From positions 32,001 to 96,000 of IMG/VR virus record IMGVR_UViG_3300025120_000001: a DNA stretch of 64,000 nucleotides; one strand, 5' to 3'. Source of the stretch: a virus. The notes below the pieces were generated by a model, which was not told the origin of the DNA, searched no databases, and saw nothing but the letters and a program-made list of their open reading frames with translations. Positions within the stretch are counted from its first letter, which is position 1. Every line of letters begins with the position of its first letter. The position numbers were made by a program, and so were the translations under genes. This document shows positions 35,129 to 53,124 of this stretch, piece after piece.

Positions 35129-38100
35129 TTATATTCCCATCTTACCTGTATAAAAAGGGGTAGCCCACTTCTTTTTCTTTTTCTCTCCCCCTCGTTTGTT
35201 TTGGTAGCCGCCTGCTCCCTGTTGTCTAGCCTGCGCTTTCCATCTAGCTTCTCTAGGATCACCTTGATAACCTCTAGCATTTGCTTGTTGTACAAGAGAT
35301 GACATAACATTCGGATCAACATTGCCATCTTTATCTGTAAGACCTGCAGCTTTAGCTTGTCTAGCCGCTTCCATATAATCATCCATAAATGCCCATCTAT
35401 CTCCCTCTGGTTGAGGGTTAAATGCTTTAGATCCTGATTGACTAATGTCACCTCCAGATAATGGATCAACATTAAAGTAATCATACATCTGATTCATGTT
35501 ATATGTATTTGAAGCATTTGTTATCATATTAGCCGTAGCATCAGCATACTGCTCTCTATCAAAGTTCTTCTCATCCATATAAGTTTGAAGAGTTTTGGCA
35601 GTATCATCATATAACTTAGTGTTTCTTGAATCTTCAAGCTGGTTAAACTGACTATCTAATTGAGCATTCATTCTATTTGCATTATTCAAAGTCTGCACAT
35701 TTCTTGAGTTAACTCCACCAACTGCATTAGCTATAGCATCTATAGCTTGCCCTTGACCTTGCGCACTTCTAGCAGCCATTTGCTGAGGTCCTGCAAATGC
35801 ACCTAATGCTTGTTCTGATGCAGCTCTTCCTGAATTGATTGCAGCTATTTGTCTAGTTGGATCTTCCAATACAGCATCCATATAGTTTCTTCTAACTGGA
35901 GGTTGATAAGGTAAGAACATATCTCGCTCTCTATCTGCAATAGCCTGAGTTTTAATTATATCTTGAATCCAAGGTGACTTAACAGCAGAGGGTGGTGGTA
36001 ACTCTGTTTCAGGTACTTCTGGTGTCTTTCTTTTTTCAGTACAAGGACACGGCTCACTGGCTGTTGGTGTTCCCGGTTCTGAACCTTCTGGACATTGCGG
36101 ACATTCACCACAAGGACATTTACCATTCTCATCTCTTGGTAGAACCTTACCTTTATCTGGACCATCAGGACAAGGTTGACATGGATATTCAGGCACTGTA
36201 GTATTTTCACGTTGTCCTACTGTAGTGTTACCGAATGCACCATCTACTGGAGATATATCATATGTAACACCATTATATGTCCATTGATCATCATCTACAC
36301 CTGATTGAACAAAGTTAAGTAAATCATCTCCTTCTGCTACATCGTAAACTTGACCCGCTTGATATGCGCCTTGAAACTGTCTTACTCCTGCCTCATCTAG
36401 TGCTGTGTATGTCATTTCTGCTAGTTCTTCTGGTGTAGCATCTGGGTTATCAGCTTTAATTTTAGCATTGATATCTGTAATAGCTTTATTATAATATGAG
36501 CTATTTGTACCATCATCCCATCCAGCCTCTTTTAAATAGTCTTGATCATCTTTATAGAAGTCTTGAATAGCATTAACTTGTCTTTCCCCTCTTATGTAAT
36601 TTGAGTGAAAGTCTTCTTCAGAAGGTAAGTCTGCTTCATCAACACCTCGTGCTTTTTGAAGCAACTTATAAGTTTCATATCTCTTAAGTCTTCCTTCCTC
36701 ATTCTCATCAGAGTTATACCAATCCGTCCAACTATCAGTACCACCCATTAATTCGTCACCTGCTTTCCATGAAGGTTCGCCTCCTGATTGCATCATTGTA
36801 ATACCTTGAGATGCAAACTCCATTTCTCTAGGAGATGCTACATTTGGATCAATGCTTCCATTTTGTACACCATCAATAAACATTTGCAGTGCATTTTGTC
36901 TATCTCGTACTTCCATACCATCTTGACCATAACCGCTATATCCAGCAAAGCCTCCGCTAACAGATGCATCACCTTCCATATTTTTATTTATCAATCCTGT
37001 GTTTGTATCCCAAACACCTCTTGACATATTAGGATCATATGATGTACCCATCATGTTGTCAGCCATAGACATTTTCATCATGTCTTCTTTAGCTTGCTTT
37101 CCTTTTACATCTTTAAATCTTTCATTAATACCACCAGCAAGATTAACAGCAAAGTTTGATGTTTCTTTAAATGCATTCATACCAGGACTCTTCATAAAGC
37201 CTTGCATTGCCGTATTTAACCTAGTCCCAAGACCGGGACCTTCTTTTTCTTTTTCTGGATCCGTCATACTACCTTGGCCATCATATATAGAAGGTGCAGC
37301 TGTTTGTTCAGTAGCAAGCTTTTGCATTTTTTGTTGATAAGGTGTAGGGCCCATTGCTGGATTTGCGTTTTGCATCTGCGCATCCGCAACTATATTCTGA
37401 CTGCTAGCATAATCATTATTTATTAACTCATTAAAATATGCTGAACCAGGACCTTGCTGTTGTTTAAATACATTCAGCAATTGTGTAGGATCTCCTAACC
37501 CAGTTTGTGCTTTAGCTAATTCTCTACCATATGCAGCCATTGGATTCATAGCTTGTGTGTCAGCTTGATTCATTGGTTGTGCTTGCTGATCTCCAGTAAA
37601 CTGTTGAAGACCTTCTACTTTTTGAGCAAACTCAAAAGGATCAATACCTATAGCCTGTACATAAGGATAAGCAGCTAATGGTAATCCATCCTCAAAACCT
37701 TTCATCATTTCTTGACCAAATGCTAGTTTAGATAAACCTTCCTTGTTTTTTTGCAACATAAGATCTGCTGTATCAGCCTGTATCTTATCCGCATATTCAT
37801 CATTTAATAAACCATAATACTTATTAAGCTCATATTGTTTAGAAACCTTAGCTGGTGTTATCTTCTTTCTAGACTTAATGCCATGATCCGCTAACATCTC
37901 CTTACCCATCTTCATTTTTTGGGTATCAGAATATATAAAAGATTGTTCTGGCAAGAACATTGGAACACCACCGCTCCCATGTCTAGGACCGCTAATATCA
38001 TAAAGACCAAACTGACCGTCATTATTTAAATCAGTTAGAACAGTCTCTCCACCTTCAGCTTCAATGTTAGCAATATCTCTTGGTACAGAAGATAGACTAT

Positions 38101-38293
38101 ATCTTACATCTGTATCTGAAGGACCCGATGCTTCATTTGAATGAGAGTTAAATGTTGTCAATCCATAATTTTGTTGGTCGCCTGTAACATGACCACCATG
38201 TGACATCTTAACCAATTCACCATCAATCAATTCAAAACCTTCAGGTAGATTTTCTATACGAACTTTATATTTAGTATTTTTAATTTTTGGCAT
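35129..38293 (-). CDS. Cargo protein (about 1054 aa; likely start MPKIK) with IEAEGGE/GPxHxxGG domain, Cys cluster and Q/N/A-rich C-terminal helix
   Basis: ATG 1 nt after the upstream stop; motif composition typical of crAss-like internal proteins. Confidence 0.7.
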   Translation of the reverse strand: MPKIKNTKYKVRIENLPEGFELIDGELVKMSHGGHVTGDQQNYGLTTFNSHSNEASGPSDTDVRYSLSSVPRDIANIEAEGGETVLTDLNNDGQFGLYDISGPRHGSGGVPMFLPEQSFIYSDTQKMKMGKEMLADHGIKSRKKITPAKVSKQYELNKYYGLLNDEYADKIQADTADLMLQKNKEGLSKLAFGQEMMKGFEDGLPLAAYPYVQAIGIDPFEFAQKVEGLQQFTGDQQAQPMNQADTQAMNPMAAYGRELAKAQTGLGDPTQLLNVFKQQQGPGSAYFNELINNDYASSQNIVADAQMQNANPAMGPTPYQQKMQKLATEQTAAPSIYDGQGSMTDPEKEKEGPGLGTRLNTAMQGFMKSPGMNAFKETSNFAVNLAGGINERFKDVKGKQAKEDMMKMSMADNMMGTSYDPNMSRGVWDTNTGLINKNMEGDASVSGGFAGYSGYGQDGMEVRDRQNALQMFIDGVQNGSIDPNVASPREMEFASQGITMMQSGGEPSWKAGDELMGGTDSWTDWYNSDENEEGRLKRYETYKLLQKARGVDEADLPSEEDFHSNYIRGERQVNAIQDFYKDDQDYLKEAGWDDGTNSSYYNKAITDINAKIKADNPDATPEELAEMTYTALDEAGVRQFQGAYQAGQVYDVAEGDDLLNFVQSGVDDDQWTYNGVTYDISPVDGAFGNTTVGQRENTTVPEYPCQPCPDGPDKGKVLPRDENGKCPCGECPQCPEGSEPGTPTASEPCPCTEKRKTPEVPETELPPPSAVKSPWIQDIIKTQAIADRERDMFLPYQPPVRRNYMDAVLEDPTRQIAAINSGRAASEQALGAFAGPQQMAARSAQGQGQAIDAIANAVGGVNSRNVQTLNNANRMNAQLDSQFNQLEDSRNTKLYDDTAKTLQTYMDEKNFDREQYADATANMITNASNTYNMNQMYDYFNVDPLSGGDISQSGSKAFNPQPEGDRWAFMDDYMEAARQAKAAGLTDKDGNVDPNVMSSLVQQANARGYQGDPREARWKAQARQQGAGGYQNKRGGEKKKKKWATPFYTGKMGI

Positions 38294-38294
38294 A

Positions 38295-41200
38295 TTATAA
38301 TATTTTAACGCTGCCACCAGCAGCCATTATTTTTGCAATTTGCTCTGTAGATAATTCTACTGAATCCATATCATGAGGGCTTGCCTTTTTATAAGATCTA
38401 GCTTTAGGGCTTGCCTCTTGTATCTCTTGTAGTAATTGTTGTAAATATTCTTTCATCTGCATAAGCTGTTCAGGATTCATGGCTTGTTGCATCATTTGAG
38501 CCTGACCTTGAGGATCCATCATTTGTTGTGCTAAATCATTCATGTATTGCATCTCCATCATTCTAGGATCACTAGGTTGCATGTTAGGTTGCATTTGACG
38601 TGGTTGTTCCGATTGATTTATCATACCACCCATTTGTTTAAACATTGCATCATACTCAGCTTGAATAGCATCTCTTTCTTGCTCTAATCTTGGTGTAGCT
38701 CCTACATATCTCATTACACCTGAGTCATCCGTATAGTAATTATCTTCGCCTGTTCTCATTGGATCACCTTCAAAGTTTCTTGACTTATATCCGTCATATA
38801 CACCTCCTGGATTATTATATAAATCTAAAACCTCATCATCCCCATAACCTGCAGATATTACACTATGCTGTGAGCCACTAGATGCACCACCTGGTTGATT
38901 ATACATATGACCTCTAATTAGATCTCCTTCTTGTGTTGGCATAGTCCCTTTAGGTTGAAGTTCAAATCCCATTTGCTCAGCGTAAGAATTAAATTGAGCA
39001 TTTCCTGGTATCATAGGAATCTTATCACCAGGACCATATGTTCTACCATTTACCGTAAACTCTTCCTGACCTTCAGGAATTGTAACTCCAGCATCTCTCA
39101 TTATTTGACAGGAATATGTATTACAAGCAAAGCCCGTATTATCTACCCATTTTGCTAAGTTATCAGATATTCCAGCTTGTGAAGCGGATGCATTAGCATC
39201 TCCAAGTTCTCTAGCTCTTGCTGATACAGCTCCTCTAACATCTGTTACTCTAGACATCTCTGTATCATATGCAGCATTGGCAGCATTAAGTCTTTCTTGC
39301 ATTGCTAGTTGTTCTGGAGTTAACTCTGGAACTACAGTTTCTTCACCACCCTCTTGACGCATTTTTGTACCTAGTCTTGAAAACTGAGTAGGTTTATTTC
39401 TAACCAATTTATCTTTACTCCAATTCCAAGGTTGTATGTTATGACCAAACTTACTTAACTTAGTAAAAGTATGATCTGGTCTACGCTCTCTTCCGTGAGG
39501 TTTATTACCACCTCTTTCAATTCTTTTTGCTTGTCTTTCATTCTTGCGAAAATCTCTATCTCCCTGTCTTTCTTCTGGACTTCTTTTAAATATACCCGGG
39601 CTACTATTTCTAACTCTACTTCCATCATCTACAGGACCTAATCCAGAACCTCCTCCAGGTCTTGGACCAGTTGCGCCTGCAGTAGCACCTTGTTGACTTA
39701 ACATGCTCTGTTTAACCATATCTAAACCATCATTTAAAAACTGTCTTTGTGATGGACTAGCATTTGTTATTTTTGATTTTGCTTCATCTGTATTAAAAAT
39801 TGAAGGTTCTCTTTCGCCACCCTCTTGAGCAAAAGGAAGACCAAATCCTCCACCCATTTGCATAGGCGGCATTGTCCCAACACCTTCTTGCATGATCTCT
39901 GGACTTGGGCCTTTCATCTGTCTTTGCATTTGCATCATCAGTTGATCCATCTGCATTTTATGTTGCTGTTGCATCCTTCTAATGACATCCTCATACTGTC
40001 TAACTATAGCTTCTTGATTTTGAACATGACCCATTTCAGGTTTACTATTTCCTATTATTTCTGCCACTATCTCTTTTCCATTCTGACCTTTCTGAATTCC
40101 GTTCATTATTTTTTGTTGAACCGCAGGAGGAAGGGCATTGAAACCCGGGTTATTATAGGAACCACCATTCTTGTAATTTTGCATCATCATATTATTTAAA
40201 TTTTCTTGACTATCTTCGGGTAACTCTGCATCTTTATCATAGTAACCTACACCACCTTTGGAATCCATTCCAAATTGCATACCCTTTGGCATATCTTTCT
40301 TATCAGTTTCAAACGCTGATCTTTGATCTGCAACATATTGTAGTTGATCTTTTTGATTTTGATCTAATCCGGACATATCACCTTGAAGTTGATTAAATGA
40401 TTTATAGCCTTCTTTTTCATAATCAAACGGTTTGTTAAGTAATTCACCTGTATTAACCTTCTCACCTTTTTTAAATAGGTTGCTGTATTTTTTCTTTTTA
40501 ATATTTGATTGATATCTAGGATCGTTATAAGCTGTTTGGTAATTTCCAGTTTCTGCATCATACTTCATCATAAGTTTATCACCGGCATTCTTCATAAGAC
40601 CTTTTGGTGTCTTGCCTTTCATAACAGCCATGGTATCCTTATGTCTATTACGTTTTGCCTTCATATCTCTAAAAGCACCATCTCCTAAACCATCTCCGTC
40701 TTTATCCTTACCACCAAATAATCTACCAGCGCCTTCCGCAACAGTAGCAAGTAAGTTTACGTTCTTACCTTTCATACCAAGATTCATTGGCATGTATGCA
40801 CTATTTATATTACCTCTAACACTATCATCTATTTGATTATAGTTTAAAGCATTATTAATACCCATTCCATACTGAGCTTGATTTAAAATCTCTCCATATC
40901 TACTAGGTTCTCCGCCTTCTTGAAAGTTATACCATTTTCCCGTATTGTAGTTTGGATCTCCACCAAAAACACTATTTAACCCATTAAGAAGCCCATCAGC
41001 TTTTTGGTATCTAGTTCCAGCATCTTGAGCTGTATTTTTAATCCATCTACCACTTTTGTAGACCGCAGATACACCATCAATAATTTTTGTTGCGCCCTCA
41101 TGCGCTATCATTCCTAAAGCTAAATCAACTGCTTTTGCATCGTTTGGATCAATCATCCAATCTGGTGTAATTTTATCTGTAATTCCGGAACCTGCTATTG

Positions 41201-42662
41201 CTGGAGCTAAACCACTTGCCATGTCTTTTACTCCCTGCGTTCTACCTTTATATTCTGAACCCCCAACTTTAGATCTACCTTTATAATTTTGTGCAAGAGT
41301 ATTGAAAACCATATCAGGATCTGTTAGTGCACCATCACCACCTTTACCAATACCAAATTTTGACGCTATATCAGCAAGACCTACTACTCCCGTAGTCTGA
41401 CCAACGTTCTTATCATCAACACCATAGGCTCTACACACACCATCAGCACAATTGTTATCTCCAAAATGATAGTCTTTTGCTGACTCTGATGCTGTAGTAT
41501 TTAAGAAGTTTGCAAGTTCATTTGAGTTTAATTGTATATCTAATGTTCTTGCATTAGATCCTTTGAGAAATGCATCCATTATCCCTTTATTCTCATAATG
41601 TTGTGCATACCTACTTCCTTTTCCAGCATTGTCATCTCCCCCGCTATCATTTTTCATAGCATAGGCCTGACCTCTTTCTTCCCATCTATTGACTAGGGCA
41701 TCTTGAACTTTATCATCATTATCTCTATACTGCAATACAGGATTGCCATTAGGATCAATCAATATAGTTTCAATATGACCAGGAGGCATATTCAAATATT
41801 CATAGTTTGTACCTTTTGGATACGCTACAACTTTTGTTGTATACCCGCTGCCTTCTTTTATAATATCCTGATAACTAGGAATAGTCTCAGAAGCTACAAC
41901 ATCTTGTGAGCTTCTTGCTGCTCTTTCCTTATCAGCCTTATCTTTTAAGTACTTTGCTTTTTGATTATTATCCCAAGCCTTTTGTTCTTCTGTGCCTTCC
42001 CACTCATCAACGTTATCTCCAAACACGTCAGCTCTAGCAGATTTCAACGGTACTTCATTTCCAGATTTCTGCAAGTCTCTCCACTTTGTGCCTTTGGCTG
42101 ACTTTGTAAAATAAGTCATTTCCCCTGTTCTAGGATCTGTAATCTTTTTATAGTGATAGCCATCACCTCTATCTGTAATTATATCTTCAATTGGAGCTGA
42201 ATAATCTAAGTCATCAACTTCTGCACCATCTTGCGCTATTGGAGTTTGGCTTGGCTGACCTTCCCTGACCATATCTACAGGTGGTCTTTTAATTTGACCT
42301 TCTGCAGGTTCTCCTTGAGTAGGTTGTATCGGACCTTCTGGTGCTGGAGCTGTTTGTTGTTCTTGCAATTCATTCATTGCACCCATTATCTCTTGTTCAC
42401 TTAATCCAGCAGATACAAGACCTTGCTGAATTGCTTCCATTGGAACCTCATTCTGAGCTAAGGTCATAATTAATTGAGCCAAGGGCATTCCTTGTTCTAT
42501 TGCTGATTTAATCGCAGGTACTAATTGTTCCATTGGATCATTGGCGGAAGCCGGCATTTGATCCTGTCCTTGTGGTTGCATCTGAGGTTCTCCTCCTGTT
42601 TGCATGAAGTCTCTCATTTTTTTGCTATGCAAACTTCTATTGTTTAGATTTGAATTGTGCAT
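38295..42662 (-). CDS. Cargo polyprotein (1455 aa) with two papain-fold peptidase-like domains and Q/M-rich linkers
   Basis: GHIE...YHFGDNNCAD (permuted His-Cys order) and ACNTYS...GDLI...QHSVI (NlpC/P60/CHAP order); about 12 [FYMA]xxG(G)-type motifs. Confidence 0.7.
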   Translation of the reverse strand: MHNSNLNNRSLHSKKMRDFMQTGGEPQMQPQGQDQMPASANDPMEQLVPAIKSAIEQGMPLAQLIMTLAQNEVPMEAIQQGLVSAGLSEQEIMGAMNELQEQQTAPAPEGPIQPTQGEPAEGQIKRPPVDMVREGQPSQTPIAQDGAEVDDLDYSAPIEDIITDRGDGYHYKKITDPRTGEMTYFTKSAKGTKWRDLQKSGNEVPLKSARADVFGDNVDEWEGTEEQKAWDNNQKAKYLKDKADKERAARSSQDVVASETIPSYQDIIKEGSGYTTKVVAYPKGTNYEYLNMPPGHIETILIDPNGNPVLQYRDNDDKVQDALVNRWEERGQAYAMKNDSGGDDNAGKGSRYAQHYENKGIMDAFLKGSNARTLDIQLNSNELANFLNTTASESAKDYHFGDNNCADGVCRAYGVDDKNVGQTTGVVGLADIASKFGIGKGGDGALTDPDMVFNTLAQNYKGRSKVGGSEYKGRTQGVKDMASGLAPAIAGSGITDKITPDWMIDPNDAKAVDLALGMIAHEGATKIIDGVSAVYKSGRWIKNTAQDAGTRYQKADGLLNGLNSVFGGDPNYNTGKWYNFQEGGEPSRYGEILNQAQYGMGINNALNYNQIDDSVRGNINSAYMPMNLGMKGKNVNLLATVAEGAGRLFGGKDKDGDGLGDGAFRDMKAKRNRHKDTMAVMKGKTPKGLMKNAGDKLMMKYDAETGNYQTAYNDPRYQSNIKKKKYSNLFKKGEKVNTGELLNKPFDYEKEGYKSFNQLQGDMSGLDQNQKDQLQYVADQRSAFETDKKDMPKGMQFGMDSKGGVGYYDKDAELPEDSQENLNNMMMQNYKNGGSYNNPGFNALPPAVQQKIMNGIQKGQNGKEIVAEIIGNSKPEMGHVQNQEAIVRQYEDVIRRMQQQHKMQMDQLMMQMQRQMKGPSPEIMQEGVGTMPPMQMGGGFGLPFAQEGGEREPSIFNTDEAKSKITNASPSQRQFLNDGLDMVKQSMLSQQGATAGATGPRPGGGSGLGPVDDGSRVRNSSPGIFKRSPEERQGDRDFRKNERQAKRIERGGNKPHGRERRPDHTFTKLSKFGHNIQPWNWSKDKLVRNKPTQFSRLGTKMRQEGGEETVVPELTPEQLAMQERLNAANAAYDTEMSRVTDVRGAVSARARELGDANASASQAGISDNLAKWVDNTGFACNTYSCQIMRDAGVTIPEGQEEFTVNGRTYGPGDKIPMIPGNAQFNSYAEQMGFELQPKGTMPTQEGDLIRGHMYNQPGGASSGSQHSVISAGYGDDEVLDLYNNPGGVYDGYKSRNFEGDPMRTGEDNYYTDDSGVMRYVGATPRLEQERDAIQAEYDAMFKQMGGMINQSEQPRQMQPNMQPSDPRMMEMQYMNDLAQQMMDPQGQAQMMQQAMNPEQLMQMKEYLQQLLQEIQEASPKARSYKKASPHDMDSVELSTEQIAKIMAAGGSVKIL

Positions 42663-42685
42663 TTTTTAATTTATTGGATACAATT

Positions 42686-42697
42686 ATAATATACGAA
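42686..42697 (-). promoter_or_regulatory. Putative late promoter TTCGTATATTAT
   Basis: Shared motif; TTAG 20 nt upstream. Confidence 0.65.
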
Positions 42698-42725
42698 TAA
42701 TTGGTAACATTTACTAATTTAGGGT

Positions 42726-45293
42726 TTAAGATATCATTGTAGTCATTATGTAATTAGAAGGGTGCATGTTATTTACCTTAGCCTCTCTATAATAAACTCT
42801 ATTAAGTTTATCATAGTTTTTCTGTGCTTTCTGACTTTCATCTTTACCTACTACATAATCTTTATACAAACCTAATTCTGGAGAAAGTTTAGGTCCTCCT
42901 ATTTTAAACTTACGTGGTACATTCTCATTATATGTATCATATAGCTGGGTTTGCATTTTTAATAATTGAGCTGGCTGTAATTGAAAAGCATCTAGATTTG
43001 ATAATTCTTCTTCTAAAAATTGTTGCTTAGCTTCAATGTCTTTAGGTGTTATCTCTCCGCCTGATTGTTTTTTAATTAGATCCATCCAGCCTTTAATGTT
43101 TTTAACATAACCGGCTCCTCCTTGAGCATCCCCAGATGTTAAAGAATAAGGTGAGTTCCAATTATAAATAAAAGCATCTATAGGACTAAGATCTGCATTA
43201 CCTGCAGTTGCTTTATCTATAACAATTTGCTCTTCTCCATCTTCATCTTTTTCATAACGTGCTGTATATCTACCCGGCCAACCCTCTTCTTCAGCAGCAG
43301 CATCAAGGTTTTTCTGAATTTCTTCTAGACTATCCATAGATCCTAGACCTAAAAAATTAATTCCAGTAAAAAGATCTACATTTACTCCACCATCAGTTTC
43401 AAACTCTTTGCCATCATATTTAATGTCACTCTTCCAGTCTTTAGCTTTACCTTTCCAAGTTGGCGGACGGTAAGTTCTTACACCTTGTTTTCCTTTACCT
43501 TTCTTTAAATTCTTTTGAGCTGCTAAATAATTTCTTGATCCATAAATCATAGAAGCAATGGCAGATTTATCAGAATCTTTTAAATCTGATTGTTGAGTGA
43601 TGCCGTATTTTTTAGCCAGCTTCATTAATTGTTTATCTTCTGAAATGTTACTCCACATCAATTGCGTTAATCCAGAACTATCTTGACCTAATGTTCCCGG
43701 TAAAGCTTGCTCAATATTATGTTGATAGCCTCCACCACCTTCTGTTTCTTGCATTGAAATACCTATAAGGGCAGCGGACATTTCATCATACTGATCTTCT
43801 CTAATTTTAAGATCTTCCATTAAAGAGAATTTTTTATCTTTTAATGCTTTATAGAAATCTGGGAGTTCATCATCATCCTGAAAATATGATTGATCCATTA
43901 TAGCATCTAGATTAAGATCTAATTCTTTTGGATCTTCTCCTGTGTAATAACCCTTTTCTTTTGCCCATTCTAAACCATGTCCTATATGTTCTTTTGGTAT
44001 AGTGATATTAGATATACCGCCTATTCCATACATAGTGCTTCCATCAATTGGGACATAATCCCCATAATCATAAACAACAGGAACCCCTCTTTCATCATAT
44101 CCTACAACTTGAGTACTGTGACCAGAGCTAACCATTCCGAGTTTATTATTTTCTCCTTTTTTATCTAAGTATTGATCAAATCCTATTATTGTACCTGGAG
44201 TCATATCTTTATATAACTCTTTTAGTTGTTCTTCAGTTAAGCGGCTTGACTCATTATTTGCCCAATTTTCATCAGTAGTGTTATATAAACTTTTACCCCC
44301 TTTGCCAACCATCATGCCGTGTATATCCCAACTATCTGCTGTATAATCATATTCAGTTTCTCCATATACATCCCGGCTAAAAGATGGTTGATTCTTAATC
44401 CAATTATATGTATTAGATCCTTCACCAAATCTATCATCCTCAACATCATTAGTATAATGAACAAACTCATCTGTATTTTTATCATATCCGTAACCCGTTC
44501 CAGTATCACTATCTCCAGCAGCCTGTAAACTTTGTACACCAATATTTTTCTTTAAATTCACTTCATTTAGAAAATCACCACTCGGGTATCTTTGACCAAC
44601 AAGTTTATCATAAGCATCATATGAACTAGCTAAACAACCTTTACCACGAGGATCGCAATAATACTCACCACTTTCACCTTGATTAAGTTTATCAAAATCT
44701 GCAGCAGAAATATAAAGATCATTTAAATTACTAACTCCTTTTTCTCCACCATCTTGAAAATTATGCTTAAATCCAACGTTAATTCCAAACGTAGGATTTT
44801 TTCCTAAATGAGCGCTAGGACTTACGCTAAACTCATTGCTTCCTTTTTGATACTTAAGATCTAAACCTAAGTCTAATGATCCATTTCTTGAAGCAAGTTC
44901 TTGTAATGGCTTAATGTAAGTACCGTGTATATCTAAATTTTTAGAATTAATATGACCACTATATCCAAGACTATTACTATCCATGAATGCATTACCGCGA
45001 CTTTTAATAGAAGGTTCTTCTCTATGAGGGATTTCCAAAACTACATTGCCGGGAAAATCATATTCAAAACCAGGAAACATTCTTTTTTCATTACCAAACT
45101 CATCTAAACCTGTAACTGGAAAGTCTACATCTCTCATTGTTATTCTTCCTGACGGAATTATATTAAACGGGTTATCTACATCAGGGCTATTTCTTTTATA
45201 CCCTTCTGTTGAGAAACCTGAGCTATATGTAATTTCTTCATTTGGTCCACCTGGTAAACCTCTCCTTATTATGTCCTCGTATTTGTTTATCAT
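42726..45293 (-). CDS. Cargo protein (855 aa) with NlpC/P60/CHAP-like peptidase and lytic-transglycosylase-like domains
   Basis: GCLASS...PGTIIGF...GHSTQVVGY; ISMQET...GLTQL...YNWN. Confidence 0.65.
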   Translation of the reverse strand: MINKYEDIIRRGLPGGPNEEITYSSGFSTEGYKRNSPDVDNPFNIIPSGRITMRDVDFPVTGLDEFGNEKRMFPGFEYDFPGNVVLEIPHREEPSIKSRGNAFMDSNSLGYSGHINSKNLDIHGTYIKPLQELASRNGSLDLGLDLKYQKGSNEFSVSPSAHLGKNPTFGINVGFKHNFQDGGEKGVSNLNDLYISAADFDKLNQGESGEYYCDPRGKGCLASSYDAYDKLVGQRYPSGDFLNEVNLKKNIGVQSLQAAGDSDTGTGYGYDKNTDEFVHYTNDVEDDRFGEGSNTYNWIKNQPSFSRDVYGETEYDYTADSWDIHGMMVGKGGKSLYNTTDENWANNESSRLTEEQLKELYKDMTPGTIIGFDQYLDKKGENNKLGMVSSGHSTQVVGYDERGVPVVYDYGDYVPIDGSTMYGIGGISNITIPKEHIGHGLEWAKEKGYYTGEDPKELDLNLDAIMDQSYFQDDDELPDFYKALKDKKFSLMEDLKIREDQYDEMSAALIGISMQETEGGGGYQHNIEQALPGTLGQDSSGLTQLMWSNISEDKQLMKLAKKYGITQQSDLKDSDKSAIASMIYGSRNYLAAQKNLKKGKGKQGVRTYRPPTWKGKAKDWKSDIKYDGKEFETDGGVNVDLFTGINFLGLGSMDSLEEIQKNLDAAAEEEGWPGRYTARYEKDEDGEEQIVIDKATAGNADLSPIDAFIYNWNSPYSLTSGDAQGGAGYVKNIKGWMDLIKKQSGGEITPKDIEAKQQFLEEELSNLDAFQLQPAQLLKMQTQLYDTYNENVPRKFKIGGPKLSPELGLYKDYVVGKDESQKAQKNYDKLNRVYYREAKVNNMHPSNYIMTTMIS

Positions 45294-48200
45294 CTGAATG
45301 AAAGATTAAGTTTTGAATTTACTAATTTCAGAAGCATTTTCCTATTGTTAGAAAGATTTCTTCTCAGTAATATTTTATTATAATAATGTCTGAATTTTTT
45401 TCTTTGATCTTCTGCTTTATTATAATTTAAGTTTACAGGGTTCAAATTCCTTATATAGCCATTACATTCTGTTATTAGAATATTTCTTTCCGCGTTGGTA
45501 AATTCACCTCTGTCATCTGTTACATCCCAGAACTGATTGAATCTAAACTTCTGTTCAACTTTTGAATATAGTATTTGTATATCATTTGAATTTATTATTG
45601 GATATGTAAGTGCATTCAAAGGATCTTCTTTTGGTTCTAGCTCTAATCTTAATAATCCTGATACTTGTTCTGAGTTATAAATTATAGACTCATCAAAATT
45701 AAAATCAAGATCATGCCATCTATCATCTCCACATGCATTGAATTGATCTCCTTTATACACATAGCTTTCTAATTGATATTCAAGACTACGTATTGTCATT
45801 ACGTTTTGACCAGTGTGTTCAACTAATTCAACTTCCCATGGATAATCTATACCATAATAATTTGCAAATAAATCACATCTATAATTATGTCTCCATATAC
45901 CTCCTATATCAAAATTAGGTTCAGTACTTTCTAATAAATTATATGTACACATCCTTGGATTAGGATTTATATAATTAGGATTTCCATTTGGACCTGCTTG
46001 ATAAACATCATCGCAGTCACCTGATTGTATAACAATGGCATCCGGATCTGAACCAGGAGGGCATAAGCATGTTACAGTTCTACAAATAGGCGGTGGTATA
46101 TCACCATCAAAGCAATCACCATCAGGATTTGTAAAGTTTCTGGCTATTGGATCATAGTAAACAAGAGTTCCTCCACCTACAGATTCACATTCACAGTCTC
46201 CTGCTAAAGGTACAGTTTCAATTTCAATACATTGCAATTGACCACCGCAATTTGTTAAAATACCACCGTTAGGGCAGCTGCAACCTATTGTTGTTCCTAT
46301 TTCAAATATACCACCTAGCGTTGCCTCTCTTGTTGAATATAGAGTAACTGTAGCTAATGTAGCATCATCTGTTATTGTAGCTAATGTAGCGGCATCAGCA
46401 TCATAAACCTCTGCGCCAAATGAAGCATAAGATCCATCATTATAACCTTCTAGTGTAATAATGTTTGTACCCGGATTAAGAGTAATTGGAATAACATGCC
46501 AGTATTTAAAGTTATTCGTGTCACTATTATTAAGCTGTACTGTAAGATCTCCATTAACTGAAAACCTAGTTCTGTTGTCTGCGGCAATACCAATACAATA
46601 CTCTTTTTGTACTTCAACTTGAACACAAACTGTAAACCCTATCCATTCTCCAACCGGTTGAGGGTTGTTTCCTGCTTCAGTCCATACACCAACTGTATTT
46701 AATCTATTTCTCCACAGGTCGCATGAAGAACTCCATGACCCGCAAGGATCAGGTAAATAGTTATCTACCAACAATTCATTACCAAGAGCATCATCTAATC
46801 TAAAAGGACTTGATGAACTTACAGATGATATAGGCAATGGTCTTCCTGTAGCACTTTCATAAAACCTTGTACCAAAGTCTCCATAAACTTCTTCTTGCTG
46901 TGCTTTATTTACCTTTATTTCTTCTCCGCAAGATACAGGAAATATTGTAAAGCTTTCACAAACACCCGTTTTCTCATTATATGTGAATCCTTCTGGACAT
47001 TCAGTTTGAATTCCAATTGGGGTATCAATAACAGTAACTCTTGCTGGTTCAGTTTGATTAATCAATCTTTCGCAATCTCTAGTTATTGCATTATAAACAT
47101 ATCCTTCCGGACATTGTGGTATATCTGTAGTACCAGATTGAGTAGTTAAGAAATGATTAATACTTGATAAATTTAATTCAGGATGCCAATCATGAAATGA
47201 TATCCATGCTTGAGATTTTGGATCATAACTAACTGTCCAAGAACAATCATTAAAGTATTGAGGATCTCCTATTTCAATACAACGTGTATTAGCAATTGGT
47301 GGAATTGATGGAATTGATGCAATCGGTTCTGCAATACCTATTACATTTGCATCAACTTCTTCAATACCTACTTGTGTATTCGTTTGATTAAGTTGAGCTG
47401 TTCTTGATCCAGGCTTTTGATAAACTGGCGGAACTAAAGGATCTTTATAATCTACATGAGGATTTAATGGAGGCAGTTTACCGCTAAATGTAAAGCAATC
47501 TGCTTCTGCATCATAGCTAACTGAGTTAAGATATTCATCTCTAACTGAATAATCTCTTTTGCAGAAGTAAACAATATCATCTGATATGTCATAAGCAACT
47601 TGACAACCAACTCCAATTACGGGATTATCAGCCAACTTGCTAAATTCTAATGCAGGATATTGACTAATAAGATTAGATGGTAAATATTTATTAAACCACC
47701 ACTTCATACCACTATTAGATATAGGCTGTAAACCTTGACCGTTTTGCTGAAACACCTTACCTTGTGCTTGTGATATAAAGAAGAAACCAAACGGAGTATT
47801 CATTACACCTCTTTGACTTTCACAAGATCCATACTCATTTGATAAATCAGAATTAACTAGATTTTGAAAAGGTTGGCTAAATAATCCGCCATCCCCAATT
47901 GTTAGCTTAGTTCCAAGATCTGTTTGTAATTGATCTAGTCCTTGAAACATTTGGGGAGATTGATAAGGAAAGAATATAACAGCCCCGCTTTTATTAGTTG
48001 GTTTAATTATGTTAACTCTATCTTTAAAGTCTTTATAGTTATTAGGTAAAAATACTCTCCAAAAATCTTTCTTTGATTCTTCTTGTGCTTGTAATGAATA
48101 TATTAATCTTTTTGGATAATTTGTAAAACAAGTTTCTGCAATTTCAGGATTATAATCTCTAGGTTGTATTACACCACCTTTAGTTAGGTTAGTTGCAAAT

Positions 48201-51200
48201 CTGCTTGCGCTTAATGAATAATCATATGTGTAATTATTATCTCTCTTTTGTATCTCTGCGTGAAACAATTCTGAAGTTTCTTCATATCTGTGTGGATCAT
48301 AGTATCTACCTTCTGGCGTATCTTCCCAATCTCTAAATGGTAGATTAACTTCTGATTCTGTAAAGAAATCTACTACACCATTACAATGAGTATACATGTA
48401 TCCATATCTCATTGCAAATGCAGGATTACCTCCTTTGTTATCAAATATCTCATCAATACCTGTTACACATGAACCCGAACCTCTATCTAAATAAAATAGA
48501 TCATTTGGCATTGCGTCTGATGCACCAGATCCTATAATAGTTGTTAGTTTTTTTGCTAGTTCTGTAGTGTCATATTTCCTAGTGTCCATCCAAAATCTTG
48601 GATATGGGATATTTATTCTTTGTAAGTAGTTATAAGGGAATTGATCTGGTTGGCCATATAAAAAATCTGTGAATATAGGCATGATAACCTTCTCGGTATA
48701 TCTATCAACATATGTATCTCCGCTAAATATTGGTGTAGTTGTGTAAGTTCTATCTGGTTTATCATCAGTAGTATCTATTGGATATACACAAGTGGGCATT
48801 GTAACTTGCTTAATACCTTCAAGCTGACCATATTGATTTTCAAAGTTAAACTTTAATGCACCATATAAAACTGATATATCTTTGGTTTGATTTATATCAG
48901 GGTTCTTAATAAACTGATTTCCGGAACCTCCATCTGCATCGCCACCAAGGGTAAATCTTGATTTATCTACAGGGGCTCCAAATACCTGCGGTTCATCTAA
49001 TTCAGAACTTGTTTGAATAACTACAGTGTCTGGTCTAAATAAATTATTTACTTTAAAATCTGTATTGAATGTTTGAAAAGTACTCCCAATATAGTTTGAT
49101 TCTATATTTCTAGCTCTATATATTTGTCCAGCTTGTGTTTTATCATATGAATCAAATAAACCGTGAGAGTTATACTTATATGCAAAATCTTCCGCAGAAA
49201 CTAAGTTGTATAATAAATCTATAATTTTTTGAGCACCAATTGCAATATGTGTCCGAGAACCTGTTACATTCAAAACAAGTTTGTAAATGAAAGATAATGC
49301 AGAATGTTCTGTATCTTTAACATATTCTCTATCAAAACCACCACCTGACATACCAGGTGTTGCTGCTCCAATCGTTTGTTGTACTCCTCCAATAATAGGA
49401 AGTGCTATGTCATTAATAGCACCACCCATTGCCGTAACATCAAATATTTTAGAAGTTTCATCTAATAATACATTTATTGCAACATTTCCTGCTATAGTAC
49501 CAAGACCTACACCTAATGATGTGGGATAAGCAGCAATGTTAAATCCAGGAGCATTGGTTCCAACAGGCCCTATAAATACTGGCTGCCATGGTGCATTAAG
49601 ATTATTAGCATCACGTGTTGTTACTTTTTGTTTACCTTGCATTTGACCAATTGCATAACCAATACCTACAATACCGGCTACAATAGCAGCACCATTTCTT
49701 AATAATTTATTTTGAGGATGTTTTTCACTTACCTTAAAGTTACCTACACTTTCTCCGCTAACGGCTCCATAAATCCTAACTTCATATGGATTTAGAAAAG
49801 GTCTTCTAAACATTAGTTCTGGAGAGTGAAATGTAAATACATCTTTCCTATAACCTGTTATTGGTGTAAAATTGCTAAGACTGTCAGCGTAATTTGCCAT
49901 ACAACCACTTGTCTTAGGCATTGGATCAGTCTCCCATATAGCCCAGTTTAAGTTACCACCAGGTGTACCAACACCATCCCAGTGATATGTATCCGCTCTT
50001 AGATCATTGTAAGGAAAGTTTGGATATAAACCTTTACTAGGACCAAGATTTCCATCATTATTAGGAATATCATATTCCCTCATGTTTCTAAATATACCCT
50101 TTGCAAGTATAGATTTATTACCTTCTCTAGATCCCCTTAATATTTCATACCCAACAATATTAGGTATTATGGTTCCGTCATTGTATACCGGAGCTGTAAT
50201 GTTGTTAAACTCTACTCCCAATAATCTTATCTTAGCGCCATTACCTGATGATAGTGCTAAAGCAGGAGCAATTTCTTCAGAAGGCATCTTATGATGTCTA
50301 ATTTCTTTACCGCATAAATCTCCCCATATATCCGGCTTTGTTGCAGGATATCTTTCTGTAGACTGCCAATAAGCCATACCACCTTTGGCAATAATAACAC
50401 CGCCATCATCTGTAGTTAAACCTGCAATTGTTGTACCTAAAGGCGGTCCTGAAGTTGCTGTATTATATACTTGGAAATTATATTCTTGCCCTGAAGCACT
50501 TATAACATTAGTTCCTGAAGTAGTACCAAGATCTGGAGCAGGTTGACCGAATTGATTTTCAGCTGCAAGATCAGGAGCTCTTCCTGGTATATGGTATGAT
50601 GCAGATTTTTCTCCTGTATTGTATATCCACCTTATAAAAAAAGGATATACTTCATCTCTCATAAATTGAGTTTTATTACCACCCTCAAAATAATATCCAG
50701 AAGGATATTCGGCCACTACCCACTTAGCTTGTATTTGATTTGCTAAAGGTTGATAATTAAAATCAAATTGTTCTGTAGGTCCTTGTCTTATAAGATAGTC
50801 ATTTACTACATACATAGATTCTGATCTCTCATATGCTGGACTTCTTAAAAATAATAATGATAGTTGTACAGCAGGTAAAGCAGGGTCAATAAAATCAACT
50901 GATATTCTAGATTGCTCTGTACTGTAAACACCTAACTTTGTTCCTACTTTTGCACCTTGATTATCAGAAAATATAACCACTTCATATTCTTCAAAATCTT
51001 GATCTAAATTTGTTATATCAATAATTAAAGAACCACCGTTATTCCTATGATCAAAGAGTGCTTGTAAATTTGATACTCCTATATAATCTGTAACTTTTTG
51101 ACCATTTAATACATATGCAACATATGCCTGATAACTACCATTTCTTAACTGGCCGCCATCTTCATTTTTGCTAAGCTTTACGCAAGGTGTATCTAATAAT

Positions 51201-52984: not shown

Positions 52985-52985
52985 A

Positions 52986-53123
52986 TTATTTCTTTTTAGG
53001 TTTGGTGTGACGAAATCCTAGTTTTTTCATACGTAAATGATCTGCCATTTTTTTAGCCATAGTACCTTTCCCAGTCTTTGGGTTATACATCATGTGTGCT
53101 TTAAACTTTTTAGTTGCTGCCAT
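52986..53123 (-). CDS. Unlisted 45-aa basic protein MAATKKFKAHMMYNPKTGKGTMAKKMADHLRMKKLGFRHTKPKKK
   Basis: Manual translation; 1-nt gaps to both neighbours. Confidence 0.7.
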   Translation of the reverse strand: MAATKKFKAHMMYNPKTGKGTMAKKMADHLRMKKLGFRHTKPKKK

Positions 53124-53124
53124 A

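Follow-up and report, generated by a model that had tools for sequence, protein, structure and literature searches.

In the cargo proteins of a marine crAss-like phage, a short peptide signal ending in Gly-Gly marks leaders and module joints as well as the peptides that precede the C-terminal tails; it also tags the small basic late proteins. The signal, which is real, position-specific and seemingly undescribed, reads in full (Pro-x)-[M/Y/F/A/L]-[Q/K]-x-G-G, and as a rule Glu or a small polar residue comes next, with a hydrophobic one after that; its core, [FYM]-[QK]-x-G-G, consists of a bulky residue, Gln or Lys, any residue and Gly-Gly. It is read here, with reserve, as a processing site, an interpretation favoured over a somewhat less probable one in which the chain stays whole and the motif acts as a hinge and docking handle. 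The initial annotation put forward a protease site or a targeting signal, both of which are candidate functions.

Gene order and architecture of the cargo proteins

The window (the whole 64,000-nucleotide stretch analysed) corresponds to the late region of a complete genome of 112 kb. Its synteny is anchored by a muzzle-protein homologue that lacks the motif; the 855-aa gene lies directly downstream, and the 855-, 1455- and 1054-aa proteins occupy the cargo position of the crAss-type virion module (Table 1). These three genes encode virion cargo proteins, strings of swappable modules, among which are enzymes that cut peptidoglycan, small basic modules resembling DNA proteins, and short peptides; the proteins are most likely carried in the particle and injected.

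The 855-aa protein (AF2 model, pLDDT 70) consists of an N-terminal module (aa ~1-90) kept in 68 relatives, an NlpC/P60-like papain-fold domain (aa 196-435; VIA-align Z 5.8 to endopeptidase 3m1u), a lytic transglycosylase domain (aa 450-744; Z 9.7 to MltC/Slt70-type transglycosylases) and a helical hairpin (747-796) followed by a helical tail. Residues C213, C220, H392, D409 and E516 are kept in 21 homologues, and the papain-fold domain as modelled resembles a cell-wall endopeptidase. The 1455-aa protein has Q/M-rich tracts of low complexity and, at its C-terminus, a conserved peptide (38298-38366); its two Cys/His modules are possibly NlpC/P60-CHAP-like, with a weak ESM Atlas lead in that direction for aa 1106-1345 (0.86). 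The N-terminal module of the 1054-aa protein is found in 75 related ORFs; an ESM Atlas lead (0.91) connects this protein to crAss_CARG1 clusters, to which neither HMM nor hhalign gave a match. The 1062-aa version that the ORF tool starts at a GTG was rejected in favour of ATG 38293 on the basis of an alignment with 29 relatives and the TAATATG junction, so that the 1054-aa length of the initial annotation is upheld.

Elsewhere in the window, the 5366-aa virion RNA polymerase protein contains a HEAFH zincin-like signature, the sole virion-borne peptidase candidate common to crAss-like phages. This region has no Pfam match; a zincin-like protease domain has been described in orthologues of the polymerase protein (10.1101/2020.03.07.982082).

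Table 1. Motif-bearing genes, individual motif copies and reference features, by position in the window
Feature	Positions	Strand	Remarks
72-aa basic protein	1458-1676	-	MKLGG 1521-1535 before basic C-terminal tail
64-aa basic protein	3471-3665	-	leader MAKKIKYKQGG 3633-3647; MNMGG 3513-3527
60-aa basic protein	3811-3993	-	FMNGG 3952-3966; SQFGG 3925-3939; KKRGG 3898-3912
221-aa very basic protein	4643-5308	-	pI 11.3; YQGGG 5261-5275; YGHGG 5126-5140; MQIGG 5027-5041
HEAFH zincin-like signature	24990-25004	-	aa 2199-2203 of 5366-aa virion RNA polymerase protein
1054-aa cargo-position protein	35129-38293	-	start ATG 38293, not GTG 38317
NKRGG (NKRGGE)	35186-35200	-	1054-aa protein, before basic C-terminal tail; G1043 nearly invariant
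MQSGG (MQSGGE), core	36779-36793	-	1054-aa protein, in pLDDT<50 stretch 416-515
GQDGME, G-x-E variant	36911-36928	-	1054-aa protein
AQTGLG	37493-37510	-	1054-aa protein; tandem partner of AAYGRE
AAYGRE, G-x-E variant	37520-37537	-	1054-aa protein
MSHGG (MSHGGH)	38192-38206	-	1054-aa protein, N-terminal leader end; M[QK]xGG at the orthologous place in relatives
1455-aa cargo-position protein	38295-42662	-	eight core and three variant motif copies
KQMGG (KQMGGM), core	38625-38639	-	1455-aa protein, aa 1342-1346; L035 homology block stops at aa 1340
RQEGG (RQEGGE), core	39345-39359	-	1455-aa protein, aa 1102-1106; L020 homology block begins at aa 1100
MQMGG (MQMGGG, aa 934) and AQEGG (AQEGGE, aa 945), tandem pair	39816-39863	-	1455-aa protein; MQMGG 39849-39863, AQEGG 39816-39830; six residues apart
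GQNGKE, G-x-E variant	40071-40088	-	1455-aa protein, aa 859
YKNGG (YKNGGS), core	40161-40175	-	1455-aa protein, aa 830-834; then mini-module SYNNPGF..
AQYGMG	40860-40877	-	1455-aa protein, aa 596; tandem partner of FQEGG
FQEGG (FQEGGE), core	40911-40925	-	1455-aa protein, aa 580-584; homology blocks begin at aa 589
AQDGAE, G-x-E variant	42219-42236	-	1455-aa protein, aa 143
MQTGG (MQTGGE)	42591-42605	-	1455-aa protein, aa 20-24; N-terminal leader end
855-aa cargo-position protein	42726-45293	-	
FKIGG (FKIGGP), core	42894-42908	-	855-aa protein, aa 796-800; G799 nearly invariant, G800 invariant; pLDDT<50 at 792-803
KQSGG, core, then E	43056-43070	-	855-aa protein, aa 742-746; G745, G746, E747 nearly invariant; pLDDT<50 at 744-750
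FQDGG, core, then E	44745-44759	-	855-aa protein, aa 179-183
2149-aa muzzle-protein homologue	45290-51739	-	phrog_37948, E 1.5e-46
108-aa basic protein	52658-52984	-	leader ..YNSQGVRVPGMFKKGG; core site 52925-52939
45-aa stand-alone gene	52986-53123	-	without motif
99-aa basic DUF5872-type protein	53125-53424	-	ANYGG 53182-53196
59-aa basic protein	53424-53603	-	leader ..YNNVGVKVPGMYKKGG; core site 53544-53558

A motif confined to cargo and small basic late proteins

Compared with 1000 within-protein shuffles, the core motif is strongly enriched in all proteins of the window (14 copies vs 1.8 shuffled), in the three cargo proteins (7 vs 0.6) and in the small proteins (6 vs 0.3), with 0/1000 shuffles reaching the observed count in each case; QxGGE occurs 7 times vs 0.35. 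Enrichment also holds across all window proteins for [FYMA]xxGG, the form initially annotated (40 vs 24.2, 0/1000), but not for the loosest form, [FYMA]xxG[GA] (54 vs 46.6). All of the hexapeptides listed in the initial annotation are present in the sequence, and most of its loose copies are genuine: those that end in E fall into a second class, Phi-[QK]-x-G-x-E, itself enriched 5.6-fold in relatives (189 vs 34). MAAGGS (aa 1446 of the 1455-aa protein) was rejected as a copy; it belongs to the conserved C-terminal peptide, which reads ..LIAAGADIEIL in relatives.

Across 76 related phage loci the core motif occurs 231 times in cargo proteins vs 47.5 expected, whereas the structural proteins encoded upstream of the cargo are at expectation (24 vs 23.9) and muzzle homologues show no enrichment (19 vs 28.1). 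The motif is at chance in early genes, in the capsid, portal, ring and muzzle proteins and in the 5366-aa RNA polymerase protein. The signal is limited to the cargo proteins and the small, basic late proteins: it stands out against both shuffles and other virion proteins, and the idea of a genome-wide code is not supported. Both the enrichment and the specificity to cargo proteins count for cutting.

A joint composition that is simply favoured, with Gly-Gly and polar neighbours inherited along with the modules and read by nothing, would fit the predicted disorder around the sites and the fact that GG per se is not enriched (140 vs 133.6 shuffled). It is nevertheless very improbable, given a 5-8-fold enrichment over shuffles that is absent in other virion proteins, sites that are invariant at orthologous positions, and P5 and P4 residues that are kept across phages whose portals are only about 25-32% identical to that of this phage. 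Even less weight attaches to a signal in the DNA, whether a nucleotide linker for the module shuffling that takes place at the sites or a Shine-Dalgarno-like GGAGG pause site. This reading is refuted by codon use: Gly codons at the sites match the background (GGT 65% vs 57%, GGA 25% vs 32%), the synonymous Gly pairs all occur, and pairs with GGAGG are a minority. That the signal lies in the protein, not in the DNA, also counts for cutting.

Sites at leader ends and module joints

The models support the linker position initially proposed: every site of the 1054-aa protein, like all three of the 855-aa protein, lies between folded parts where pLDDT is below 50. Sites end leaders of 10-35 aa or stand 20-25 aa before C-termini, placements that, like the disorder, count for cutting; homology blocks end within 5 aa of a site at 3.4 times the random frequency. 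FQDGG of the 855-aa protein lies inside a pLDDT<50 stretch (111-185), with homology to relatives L020, L010 and L005 starting exactly there, and the block shared by the 1455-aa protein with L005 stops at aa 946, by the MQMGG/AQEGG pair. Relatives of the 1455-aa protein carry the leader ..LNxKSL[YM]QEGG at aa 9-25, and those of the 1054-aa protein have [YL][QK]xGG together with a basic tail; an invariant Gly-Gly (aa 41-42 in the 1062 numbering, 30 sequences) immediately precedes the conserved N-terminal module of the latter. In 123 related proteins the C-terminus never lies within 10 aa after a site, a neutral result, but one that provides no natural Gly-Gly terminus.

Each chain has many copies, set in disordered sequence of low complexity, and cargo proteins share the motif with small basic proteins to which they are otherwise unrelated. 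This could also suggest FG-/SYGQ-type stickers in Q/M-rich linkers, by which cargo and basic proteins would condense, uncut and with no need of a defined binding site, into a single protein body, which would be the separate, DNA-free cargo zone seen in the crAss001 capsid (PMC10172136). Such a role is improbable, since the motif is found at module boundaries and leader ends rather than scattered over the low-complexity stretches, with one site per joint (gaps mostly 150-1000 aa) the valency would be low for a condensate, and position-specific P1'/P2' preferences would not be expected.

Seven small basic proteins (1458-5308 and 52658-53603) contain 12 further copies, in agreement with the approximately ten noted initially. 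A 17-aa peptide is N-terminal in two small proteins but C-terminal in a third, and in the 99-aa protein ANYGG is followed by a C-terminal copy of the YNNVG..VPGMYKK peptide that is also present in the leaders of the 108- and 59-aa proteins. The body of the 99-aa protein corresponds to a module found inside the polyproteins of L079 and L070, where it follows YGSGG. The 45-aa gene product likewise occurs as an internal module in at least 14 related phages, where it begins directly after ..KKGG and ends at ..MQxGG; neither end of the stand-alone form has the motif, which therefore serves the joint and not the module. This equivalence of Gly-Gly-bounded modules and stand-alone genes (45-aa, 99-aa) counts for cutting.

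Residues after Gly-Gly and the question of cutting

Information is distributed asymmetrically over the site, on the P side and at P1'/P2'. At the first residue after Gly-Gly, LFYW are strongly depleted (12 vs 42.4 expected, p 5e-9), as are R (1 vs 10) and K (10 vs 22), whereas LFYW are enriched at the second (71 vs 42); GG outside the motif is followed by no such LFYW depletion (181 vs 197). Within the window, L, F, Y, W, R or K directly follows Gly-Gly at 0 of about 26 sites. The position after Gly-Gly avoids bacterial N-degron residues, a new finding that, together with the asymmetry, counts for cutting.

The main competing explanation, a possible though less favoured one, is that the chain remains whole: the Gly-Gly joint would be flexible, modules would unfold and thread singly through portal and tail, and the (L-P-x)-Phi-[QK]-x stub would bind repeated sites in procapsid, portal or tail barrel, loading and ordering the cargo, with the leaders of the small basic proteins as the same docking handle. 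Comparable handles are the cargo-loading peptide of encapsulins and the end of a scaffolding protein that binds the coat. This explanation would suit the position-independence of the 17-aa peptide, a weak conservation that extends to P7-P8, beyond most protease subsites, and the tandem copies, which would raise avidity. It leaves unexplained the sharp avoidance of L/F/Y/W/R/K at precisely the first position after Gly-Gly when a hydrophobic residue comes second; the 45-aa module stands alone without a handle, and the sites are predicted to be disordered rather than packed on a domain.

Structural data on crAss001 bear on both readings. The ordered pieces of its gp45 (214-245 and 425-552; PMC10172136) both sit within Gly-Gly-bounded units, which counts for cutting. 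A variant site, AFGG (425-428), opens the ordered portal-bound domain, and a tail-barrel-bound helix begins 4 aa past another site (PMC10172136), as a docking handle would have it; however, this ordered site is atypical, NAFGG being followed by Trp in violation of the P1' rule, and that the only gp45 site seen uncut is of this kind counts for cutting. The 2018 description of crAss001 does not include gp45 and gp46 among its gel-band identifications, and in our mass fingerprint of bands 1-10 they are not convincing, with gp49 and gp44 clear in band 4; this absence lends cutting weak support. The polymerase subunits of crAss001 run at full size, which counts against it.

Also against cutting, and in favour of an intact chain, searches of the complete genome for proteases of the expected families came up empty: Peptidase_S77, S78, C48, C5 and C39 gave nothing at E<=1, and the crAss001 aspartyl protease has no homologue. 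A scan of 100 proteins returned no prohead protease among the 25 of 63 Pfam families listed. Further points against cutting are that no proteolytic maturation of crassviruses is reported in the literature searched, that the papain-fold domain of the 855-aa protein resembles a cell-wall endopeptidase, and that domains of this kind are not universal, since gp041 and gp042 of Cellulophaga phage phi17:2 carry 8 sites and no cysteine. Phi17:2 and phi4:1 are motif-bearing Cellulophaga phages that can be grown.

Discussion

Taken together, these observations lead us to favour, short of calling it probable, the processing-site reading. The cut would fall directly behind Gly-Gly, or in the G-x-E variant behind G-x, and would release the cargo modules and strip the leaders from the small basic proteins. 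The enzyme might be a virion-borne peptidase, for example the polymerase-protein zincin or a papain-fold module, and could act inside the particle or only once the chain has been injected.

The site differs from those of adenain, PLpro, ubiquitin-type and double-glycine substrates, which have their hydrophobic residue at P4 instead of P5, and this counts against cutting. As a process, the proposed cargo maturation would resemble the maturation of internal proteins in T4, phiKZ-like phages, adenovirus and ASFV.

Gene order and the cargo-position proteins

The complete virus record is 112,134 bp long with direct terminal repeats, its bases 32001-96000 forming the window, and encodes Crass_capsid, CrAss_Ring_1 and CrAss_Ring_2 proteins (Pfam); the crAss-type terminase, portal and capsid protein recognized by PHROGs lie just outside the window. 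The closest portals in GenBank are those of Leptolyngbya phage Lbo-JY46 (32%), Cellulophaga phages phi17:2 and phi4:1 (25%) and gut crassviruses (22-23%). On the minus strand, ring 2, four small basic genes, ring 1 and a 2149-aa muzzle homologue (phrog_37948) precede the genes for the 855-, 1455- and 1054-aa proteins, downstream of which come genes of 1151, 5366 and 1929 aa; the product of the second of these, the virion RNA polymerase protein, carries an HEAFH zincin signature. The corresponding order in Bacteroides phage crAss001 is gp43, gp44 (muzzle), gp45 and gp46, where the muzzle gene is followed by those of cargo proteins C1 (gp45) and C2 (gp46) and then by the polymerase proteins (PMC10172136). 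On account of this synteny, "cargo proteins" is a fair name, by gene position, for the 855-, 1455- and 1054-aa proteins of a phage that is uncultured and known from its genome alone. The third of them starts at ATG 38293, directly past the stop codon of the 1455-aa gene (TAATATG), so that it comprises 1054 aa, the length given in the initial annotation, and not the 1062 aa of a GTG-initiated ORF. A gene for an Mre11/SbcD-like DNA repair exonuclease is found amid the tail gene block.

Positions of the genes and peptides discussed in the text
Feature	Record	Position	Strand	Remarks
Seven small basic proteins with the motif	window	1458-5308 and 52658-53603		pI 9.9-11.5
221-aa protein	window	4643-5308	-	pI 11.3
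1054-aa protein	window	35129-38293	-	cargo position
1455-aa protein	window	38295-42662	-	cargo position
C-terminal 23-aa peptide of the 1455-aa protein	window	38298-38366	-	conserved in relatives
855-aa protein	window	42726-45293	-	cargo position
2149-aa muzzle homologue	window	45290-51739	-	phrog_37948
CrAss_Ring_1	window	51742-52647	-	
Four small basic genes	window	52658-53603	-	between ring 2 and ring 1 genes
45-aa gene	window	52986-53123	-	stand-alone; internal module in at least 14 related polyproteins
99-aa gene	window	53125-53424	-	DUF5872-type; internal module behind YGSGG in related loci L079 and L070
CrAss_Ring_2	window	53607-54281	-	
Mre11/SbcD-like exonuclease	window	54906-56132	-	phrog_704, E 1.9e-45
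Early gene cluster	complete record (G000:C1)	7503-10452	+	outside the window
DUF1287	complete record (G000:C1)	7503-8240	+	E 1.4e-50; followed by a 394-aa protein
ClpS homologue	complete record (G000:C1)	9363-9638	+	E 5e-17
DUF2459	complete record (G000:C1)	9886-10452	+	E 2.5e-28
gp041 and gp042 of phi17:2	Cellulophaga phage phi17:2 (L081)	7464-12370		

A Gly-Gly motif concentrated in cargo-position and small basic proteins

The hexapeptides from which the initial annotation had derived a recurrent [FYMA]xxGG motif are all found in the sequence, and its core form [FYM]-[QK]-x-G-G, judged against 1000 within-protein shuffles, occurs 14 times over 37 proteins where 1.8 are expected (0/1000), with 7 against 0.6 in the three large proteins and 6 against 0.3 in the small ones (0/1000 each); QxGGE is likewise overrepresented (7 versus 0.35 expected; 0/1000). 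The loosest form proposed, [FYMA]xxG[GA], is not enriched (54 versus 46.6 in shuffles). Thirteen core sites lie in the three large proteins, and the small basic proteins, credited earlier with about ten copies, contain 12. The code is not genome-wide, as had been supposed: the remaining proteome, including the early genes, capsid, portal, muzzle and 5366-aa protein, stands at chance level.

A pattern scan with the muzzle protein fetched 76 related IMG/VR loci. Their proteins encoded behind the muzzle gene have 231 copies of hydrophobic-[QK]-x-G-G against 47.5 in shuffles; the upstream structural proteins stay at expectation (24 versus 23.9), and the muzzle homologues themselves have 19 (28.1 expected). 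The site logo shows Pro at P7 (3.5-fold), M/Y/F/A/L at P5 and Q/K at P4 ahead of the Gly-Gly pair, followed by Glu at P1' (4.6-fold; 31% of core sites) and L/I/V/P/T at P2'. A second class of site, Phi-[QK]-x-G-x-E, is enriched 5.6-fold among the relatives (189 versus 34), whereas the control patterns [QK]xG[^G][^E] (1.04) and [QK]x[^G]GE (1.10) are not; AQDGAE, GQNGKE, GQDGME and AAYGRE, all listed in the initial annotation, are therefore real variant copies. MAAGGS, listed with them, is not a site and belongs to the conserved C-terminal peptide of the 1455-aa protein. Among cultured phages, phi17:2 has six copies in gp041 (0.35 expected) and two in gp042 (0.09 expected), both encoded directly behind its muzzle gene, and Lbo-JY46 has three in two cargo-position proteins. 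The motif is a genuine signal that marks junctions and leaders of internal proteins throughout this crassvirus lineage, and no earlier description of it was found in the literature searched.

Glycine codons at the sites follow background usage, with all synonymous pairs represented: the signal resides in the protein and not in DNA, ruling out a DNA-level linker or a Shine-Dalgarno-like pause. Readings of the motif as a sticker, as a passive linker or as acting at the DNA level are less likely than those considered below. Pairing of Gln and Lys sites as transglutaminase donors and acceptors, conceivable with papain-fold modules nearby, was also ruled out, as the two residues interchange at orthologous sites (MQQGG, MKDGG, MKEGG and MQRGG at one leader position of the 1054-aa family), which speaks against chemically distinct roles.

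Leaders, joints and exchanged modules

Leaders of 10-35 aa ending in Phi-[QK]-x-G-G are present on the 1455-aa and 1054-aa proteins and on four of the small basic proteins. Homologues of the 1455-aa protein share a recurrent leader ..LNxKSL[YM]QEGG, and those of the 1054-aa protein have M[QK]xGG followed by xTGDQ at approximately aa 24-30, the Gly-Gly pair being invariant in 30 sequences. Two further contexts recur in relatives: a tandem [FY]KxGG-SLPKAQxG, and ..M[QK]xGG followed by a C-terminal peptide E[IV]xVDxxxLAxLIAAGADIEIL, which always closes the gene immediately preceding the 1054-aa homologue. The equivalent 23-residue C-terminus of the 1455-aa protein (..VELSTEQIAKIMAAGGSVKIL) looks like a docking tail for a partner; the Gly-Gly site ahead of it has been lost in this phage. 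The ESM Atlas entry for the 1455-aa protein begins at residue 20, with the Met of MQTGGE as initiator; the ..LNxxSL.. leader that relatives keep supports the longer ORF, and public gene calls may accordingly miss such leaders.

BLAST blocks between relatives start and stop at sites: residues 180-855 of the 855-aa protein correspond to 685-1372 of a protein from the related locus L020, and residues 1100-1454 and 589-858 of the 1455-aa protein align with different proteins of that locus. Over all pairs, block ends fall within 5 aa of a site 3.4 times as often as random positions, the absolute fraction of 6.8% being small because BLAST ends are noisy. Two small proteins exist both as genes and as internal modules. 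The internal form of the 45-aa protein begins directly past ..KKGG and stops at ..MQxGG, whereas the stand-alone form lacks the motif at both ends; the protein is basic and has the signature FKAHMMYNPKTG..DH..M..LG[FY].H (EFxPHMMYDPxTG in relatives), a widespread mini-module found as its own gene or inside polyproteins. The C-terminus of the 99-aa protein is a copy of a 17-aa peptide, YNNVG..VPGMYKK, that serves as N-terminal leader in the products of the next gene and a 108-aa gene, and is always separated from the body by Gly-Gly. A blanket projection of short ORFs into long proteins was diluted by tail-fibre families (8% versus 1%).

The 99-aa protein accounts for one of the two Pfam families DUF5872 and DUF6321 detected in the genome. 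The position of the four small basic genes is comparable to that of the HU/IHF-like gene of crAss001 (gp42), and their products may be DNA-condensing proteins travelling with the genome. The 221-aa protein combines tandem TVSKP(S/E) repeats, a long Lys/Arg-rich tail and three motif copies in a composition resembling that of histone H1. In phi17:2, gp041 joins an 855-aa-type to a 1054-aa-type N-terminal module, and gp042 joins a tail lysozyme domain to two HExxH modules, a type present in 28 of 72 related loci.

Predicted structures of the cargo-position proteins

In the AlphaFold2 model of the 855-aa protein (pLDDT 70), all three sites fall in stretches with pLDDT below 50 (111-185, 744-750 and 792-803). 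Between them, residues 450-744 match lytic transglycosylases (Z 9.7 to MltC, Slt70 and phiKZ gp144; E516 conserved), residues 196-435 adopt a papain fold whose best match is an NlpC/P60 endopeptidase (Z 5.8; C213, C220, H392 and D409 conserved), and residues 747-796 form a helical hairpin. For the 1054-aa protein only a poor model was obtained (pLDDT 55.6), in which every site is again in low-confidence regions and a conserved module (88-244) is predicted confidently. The earlier statement that the motifs occupy linkers flanking enzyme-like domains holds in these models, where the sites are predicted to lie in low-confidence stretches between folded parts, and the modelled enzyme domains look like cell-wall hydrolases, as expected of injected proteins.

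Searches with whole models of the 855- and 1054-aa proteins found no Foldseek match at E<=0.001, and the VIA-align lists for the whole 1054-aa model were filled by matches to its long helix 805-942. Sequence and profile searches of solved structures returned nothing or poly-Q noise only, no relative of the 855- or 1054-aa proteins was found among GenBank phages, and IMG/VR pattern scans with the 855- and 595-aa proteins gave no match. A β-hairpin with a Gly-Gly turn is unlikely, the bulky P5 and hydrophobic P2' residues being expected to face opposite sides of a two-residue hairpin; no such hairpin is seen in the models of the 855- or 1054-aa proteins.

The residue after Gly-Gly and possible readings of the motif

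The P1' position avoids the residues that act as bacterial N-degrons: L, F, Y and W occur 12 times against 42.4 expected (p 5e-9), Arg once against 10 and Lys 10 times against 22. These six residues are all absent from P1' at the approximately 26 sites of the window. At the following position LFYW are enriched instead (71 versus 42), and Gly-Gly pairs outside the motif show no LFYW depletion in the next residue (181 versus 197). Such avoidance is expected if P1' becomes a new N-terminus, or if the S1' pocket of a protease is strict.

We tentatively favour, at slightly less than an even chance, reading the motif as a processing site that would be cut after Gly-Gly, possibly only after injection. 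As a less probable second choice, the sites may stay uncut and act as a hinge combined with a docking handle; a hinge alone gives no reason for P1' avoidance, so that this result discriminates against a mere hinge.

The processing reading can be extended to a new maturation system in crassviruses of the aquatic branch, which in this full form we regard as unlikely. Cargo polyproteins and leader-tagged basic proteins would be loaded as whole chains and cut after Gly-Gly, possibly only post-injection, by a virion-borne peptidase outside the known maturation families, which could be the polymerase-protein zincin or a different cargo module; the new N-terminal residue would be selected to evade the host N-end-rule pathway, on which the early ClpS homologue of the phage may also act. 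ClpS, an adaptor of that pathway, is unusual in a phage and could bear on the avoidance of N-degrons after Gly-Gly sites.

Candidate proteases

The complete genome contains no match at E<=1 to Peptidase_S77, S78, C48, C5 or C39 and no homologue of the crAss001 aspartyl protease gp66; a Pfam scan of 100 genome proteins returned no maturation protease among the 25 of 63 families listed, and no protease hit was obtained for the 426-aa gene that separates portal and capsid. Pfam searches with the three large proteins and eight sub-regions gave nothing except Peptidase_C39_2 (E 0.18), a weak hit that falls in the domain whose fold matches an NlpC/P60 cell-wall endopeptidase. The papain-fold modules resemble cell-wall enzymes, and not all of these phages have them, since gp041 and gp042 of phi17:2 have eight sites and zero cysteines.

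The zincin of the polymerase protein is a candidate, and the only virion-borne peptidase candidate common to crAss-like phages; the zincin region has no Pfam match in the 5366-aa protein, in which the motif itself is not enriched. The authors who described the zincin suggested polymerase activation or cell-wall digestion as its role, and considered fused polymerase polyproteins "likely cleaved" (10.1101/2020.03.07.982082). No text in the literature searched joins proteolysis with crAss-like cargo proteins, and these phages fall outside the scope of a proteomics paper on marine phages (PMC12014285).

Comparison with known systems

[quoted passage not shown] 2023, PMC10172136). The likeness lies first in gene position, directly behind the muzzle gene within a crAss-type virion module that also encodes Crass_capsid and both ring proteins. 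Further common features are the mostly disordered chain of gp45, its many aromatic-preceded Gly-Gly pairs (IFDTGG, FSAYGG, AFAEGG, LKAFGG and MFAYGG) and its basic N-terminal leader closing in Gly-Gly. The crAss001 form of the motif differs: gp45 has 20 Gly-Gly pairs and the variant A-[FY]-G-G, without the Gln/Lys position, or F-x-x-G-G; gp46 has none, and the phage studied here divides its cargo among three larger proteins that include enzyme modules. In the ESM Atlas, crAss_CARG1 clusters come up as a lead (0.91) for the N-terminal module of the 1054-aa protein, whereas a sequence or profile match is absent: PF25725 has no match at E<=10 in the whole genome, no Pfam hit was obtained for the proteins or their parts, and hhalign of a 30-sequence profile of the 1054-aa family against gp45 gave a probability of 0.1.

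Both resolved pieces of gp45 lie inside Gly-Gly-bounded units (211-264 and approximately 429-563). AFGG (425-428) is included in the second resolved piece, so that the particle contains this site in uncut form. No other gp45 site has Trp as the next residue, which is Q, P, G, S, D, S, D and T at the others. In the crAss001 papers searched, including PMC10172136, the motif goes unmentioned, and neither cleavage nor a lack of it is reported. In a 2018 gel study, gp45 and gp46 were not among the band identifications and polymerase subunits ran at full size (PMC6235969). Peptide-mass fingerprinting with the deposited peak lists of the same gel (supplement 14) proved workable, assigning band 4 to gp49 (43 peaks) and gp44 (18 peaks), and found gp45 and gp46 in none of bands 1-10. 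The absence of gp45 from these bands weakly hints that it is not a discrete 91-kDa species. The motif also occurs in phi17:2 and phi4:1, both of which can be cultivated, and this puts the matter of cutting within reach of ordinary proteomics.

Among systems with known cleavage, phage T4 tags its internal proteins IPI-III and Alt with a capsid targeting sequence that is removed by the prohead protease gp21, and phiKZ-like phages process inner-body proteins at S/A/G-x-E, internal sites included; cleavage in systems of this type follows the Glu of L/I-x-E or S/A/G-x-E. The cargo described here recalls T4 in that one short leader with a conserved end site is common to small basic internal proteins and large injected enzymes, and its G-x-E variant resembles the phiKZ-like site. 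It is unlike either in having no S77/S78-type protease gene, a different consensus and Glu after Gly-Gly in only 31% of core sites, and in belonging to a crAss-type podovirus. Processing at Gly-Gly is familiar from adenovirus adenain ((M/L/I)xGG-x), African swine fever virus (ASFV) pS273R (GG-x), SUMO/Ulp1 (QTGG), coronavirus PLpro (LxGG) and C39 double-glycine leader peptidases. The motif shares with these sites the Gly-Gly pair at the presumed P2-P1 and a bulky residue upstream, QxGG recalling the SUMO tail, and as in adenovirus and ASFV one common site is carried by basic core proteins and large polyproteins; unlike the adenain, Ulp1 and C39 sites, its bulky residue stands at P5 and not at P4, which is Gln/Lys, and no C5, C48 or C39 gene was found.

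Polyvalent proteins of phages and conjugative elements, reportedly described by Iyer, Burroughs, Anand, de Souza and Aravind in 2017, are also large, virion-delivered chains of unrelated enzymatic and binding modules, peptidases among them, that are shuffled between relatives. NlpC/P60-like and transglycosylase domains occur likewise in one chain here, with modules swapped between relatives and found internally or stand-alone. To our knowledge no conserved junction peptide has been described for polyvalent proteins, whereas a single fixed motif stands at the joints here and recurs as a leader in small proteins encoded on their own. New here are the avoidance of N-degrons, the G-x-E class, the codon control, the two pairs of stand-alone and internal modules, the negative protease searches and the atypical uncut site of crAss001.

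Crassviruses, which rank among the most abundant phages of both gut and sea, load and inject several megadaltons of protein. One short code at every joint and on the leaders of internal proteins offers a direct means of predicting the protein content of the particle and the limits of the functional units, and points to where the missing protease or docking site may be sought. Were the motif a cleavage signal, crassviruses would stand beside T4, phiKZ-like phages, adenoviruses and ASFV as viruses that mature their internal proteins, but by an unknown enzyme. If instead it is an uncut handle, it would constitute a cargo-loading system of tailed phages akin to that of encapsulins, whose short cargo-loading peptides, on flexible Gly-rich linkers, bring unrelated cargo into an HK97-fold shell; the analogy would be with a different consensus, encapsulin cargo usually having one terminal copy where the motif here occurs at every joint. 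On either reading, such particles could be loaded with foreign proteins by means of the tag.
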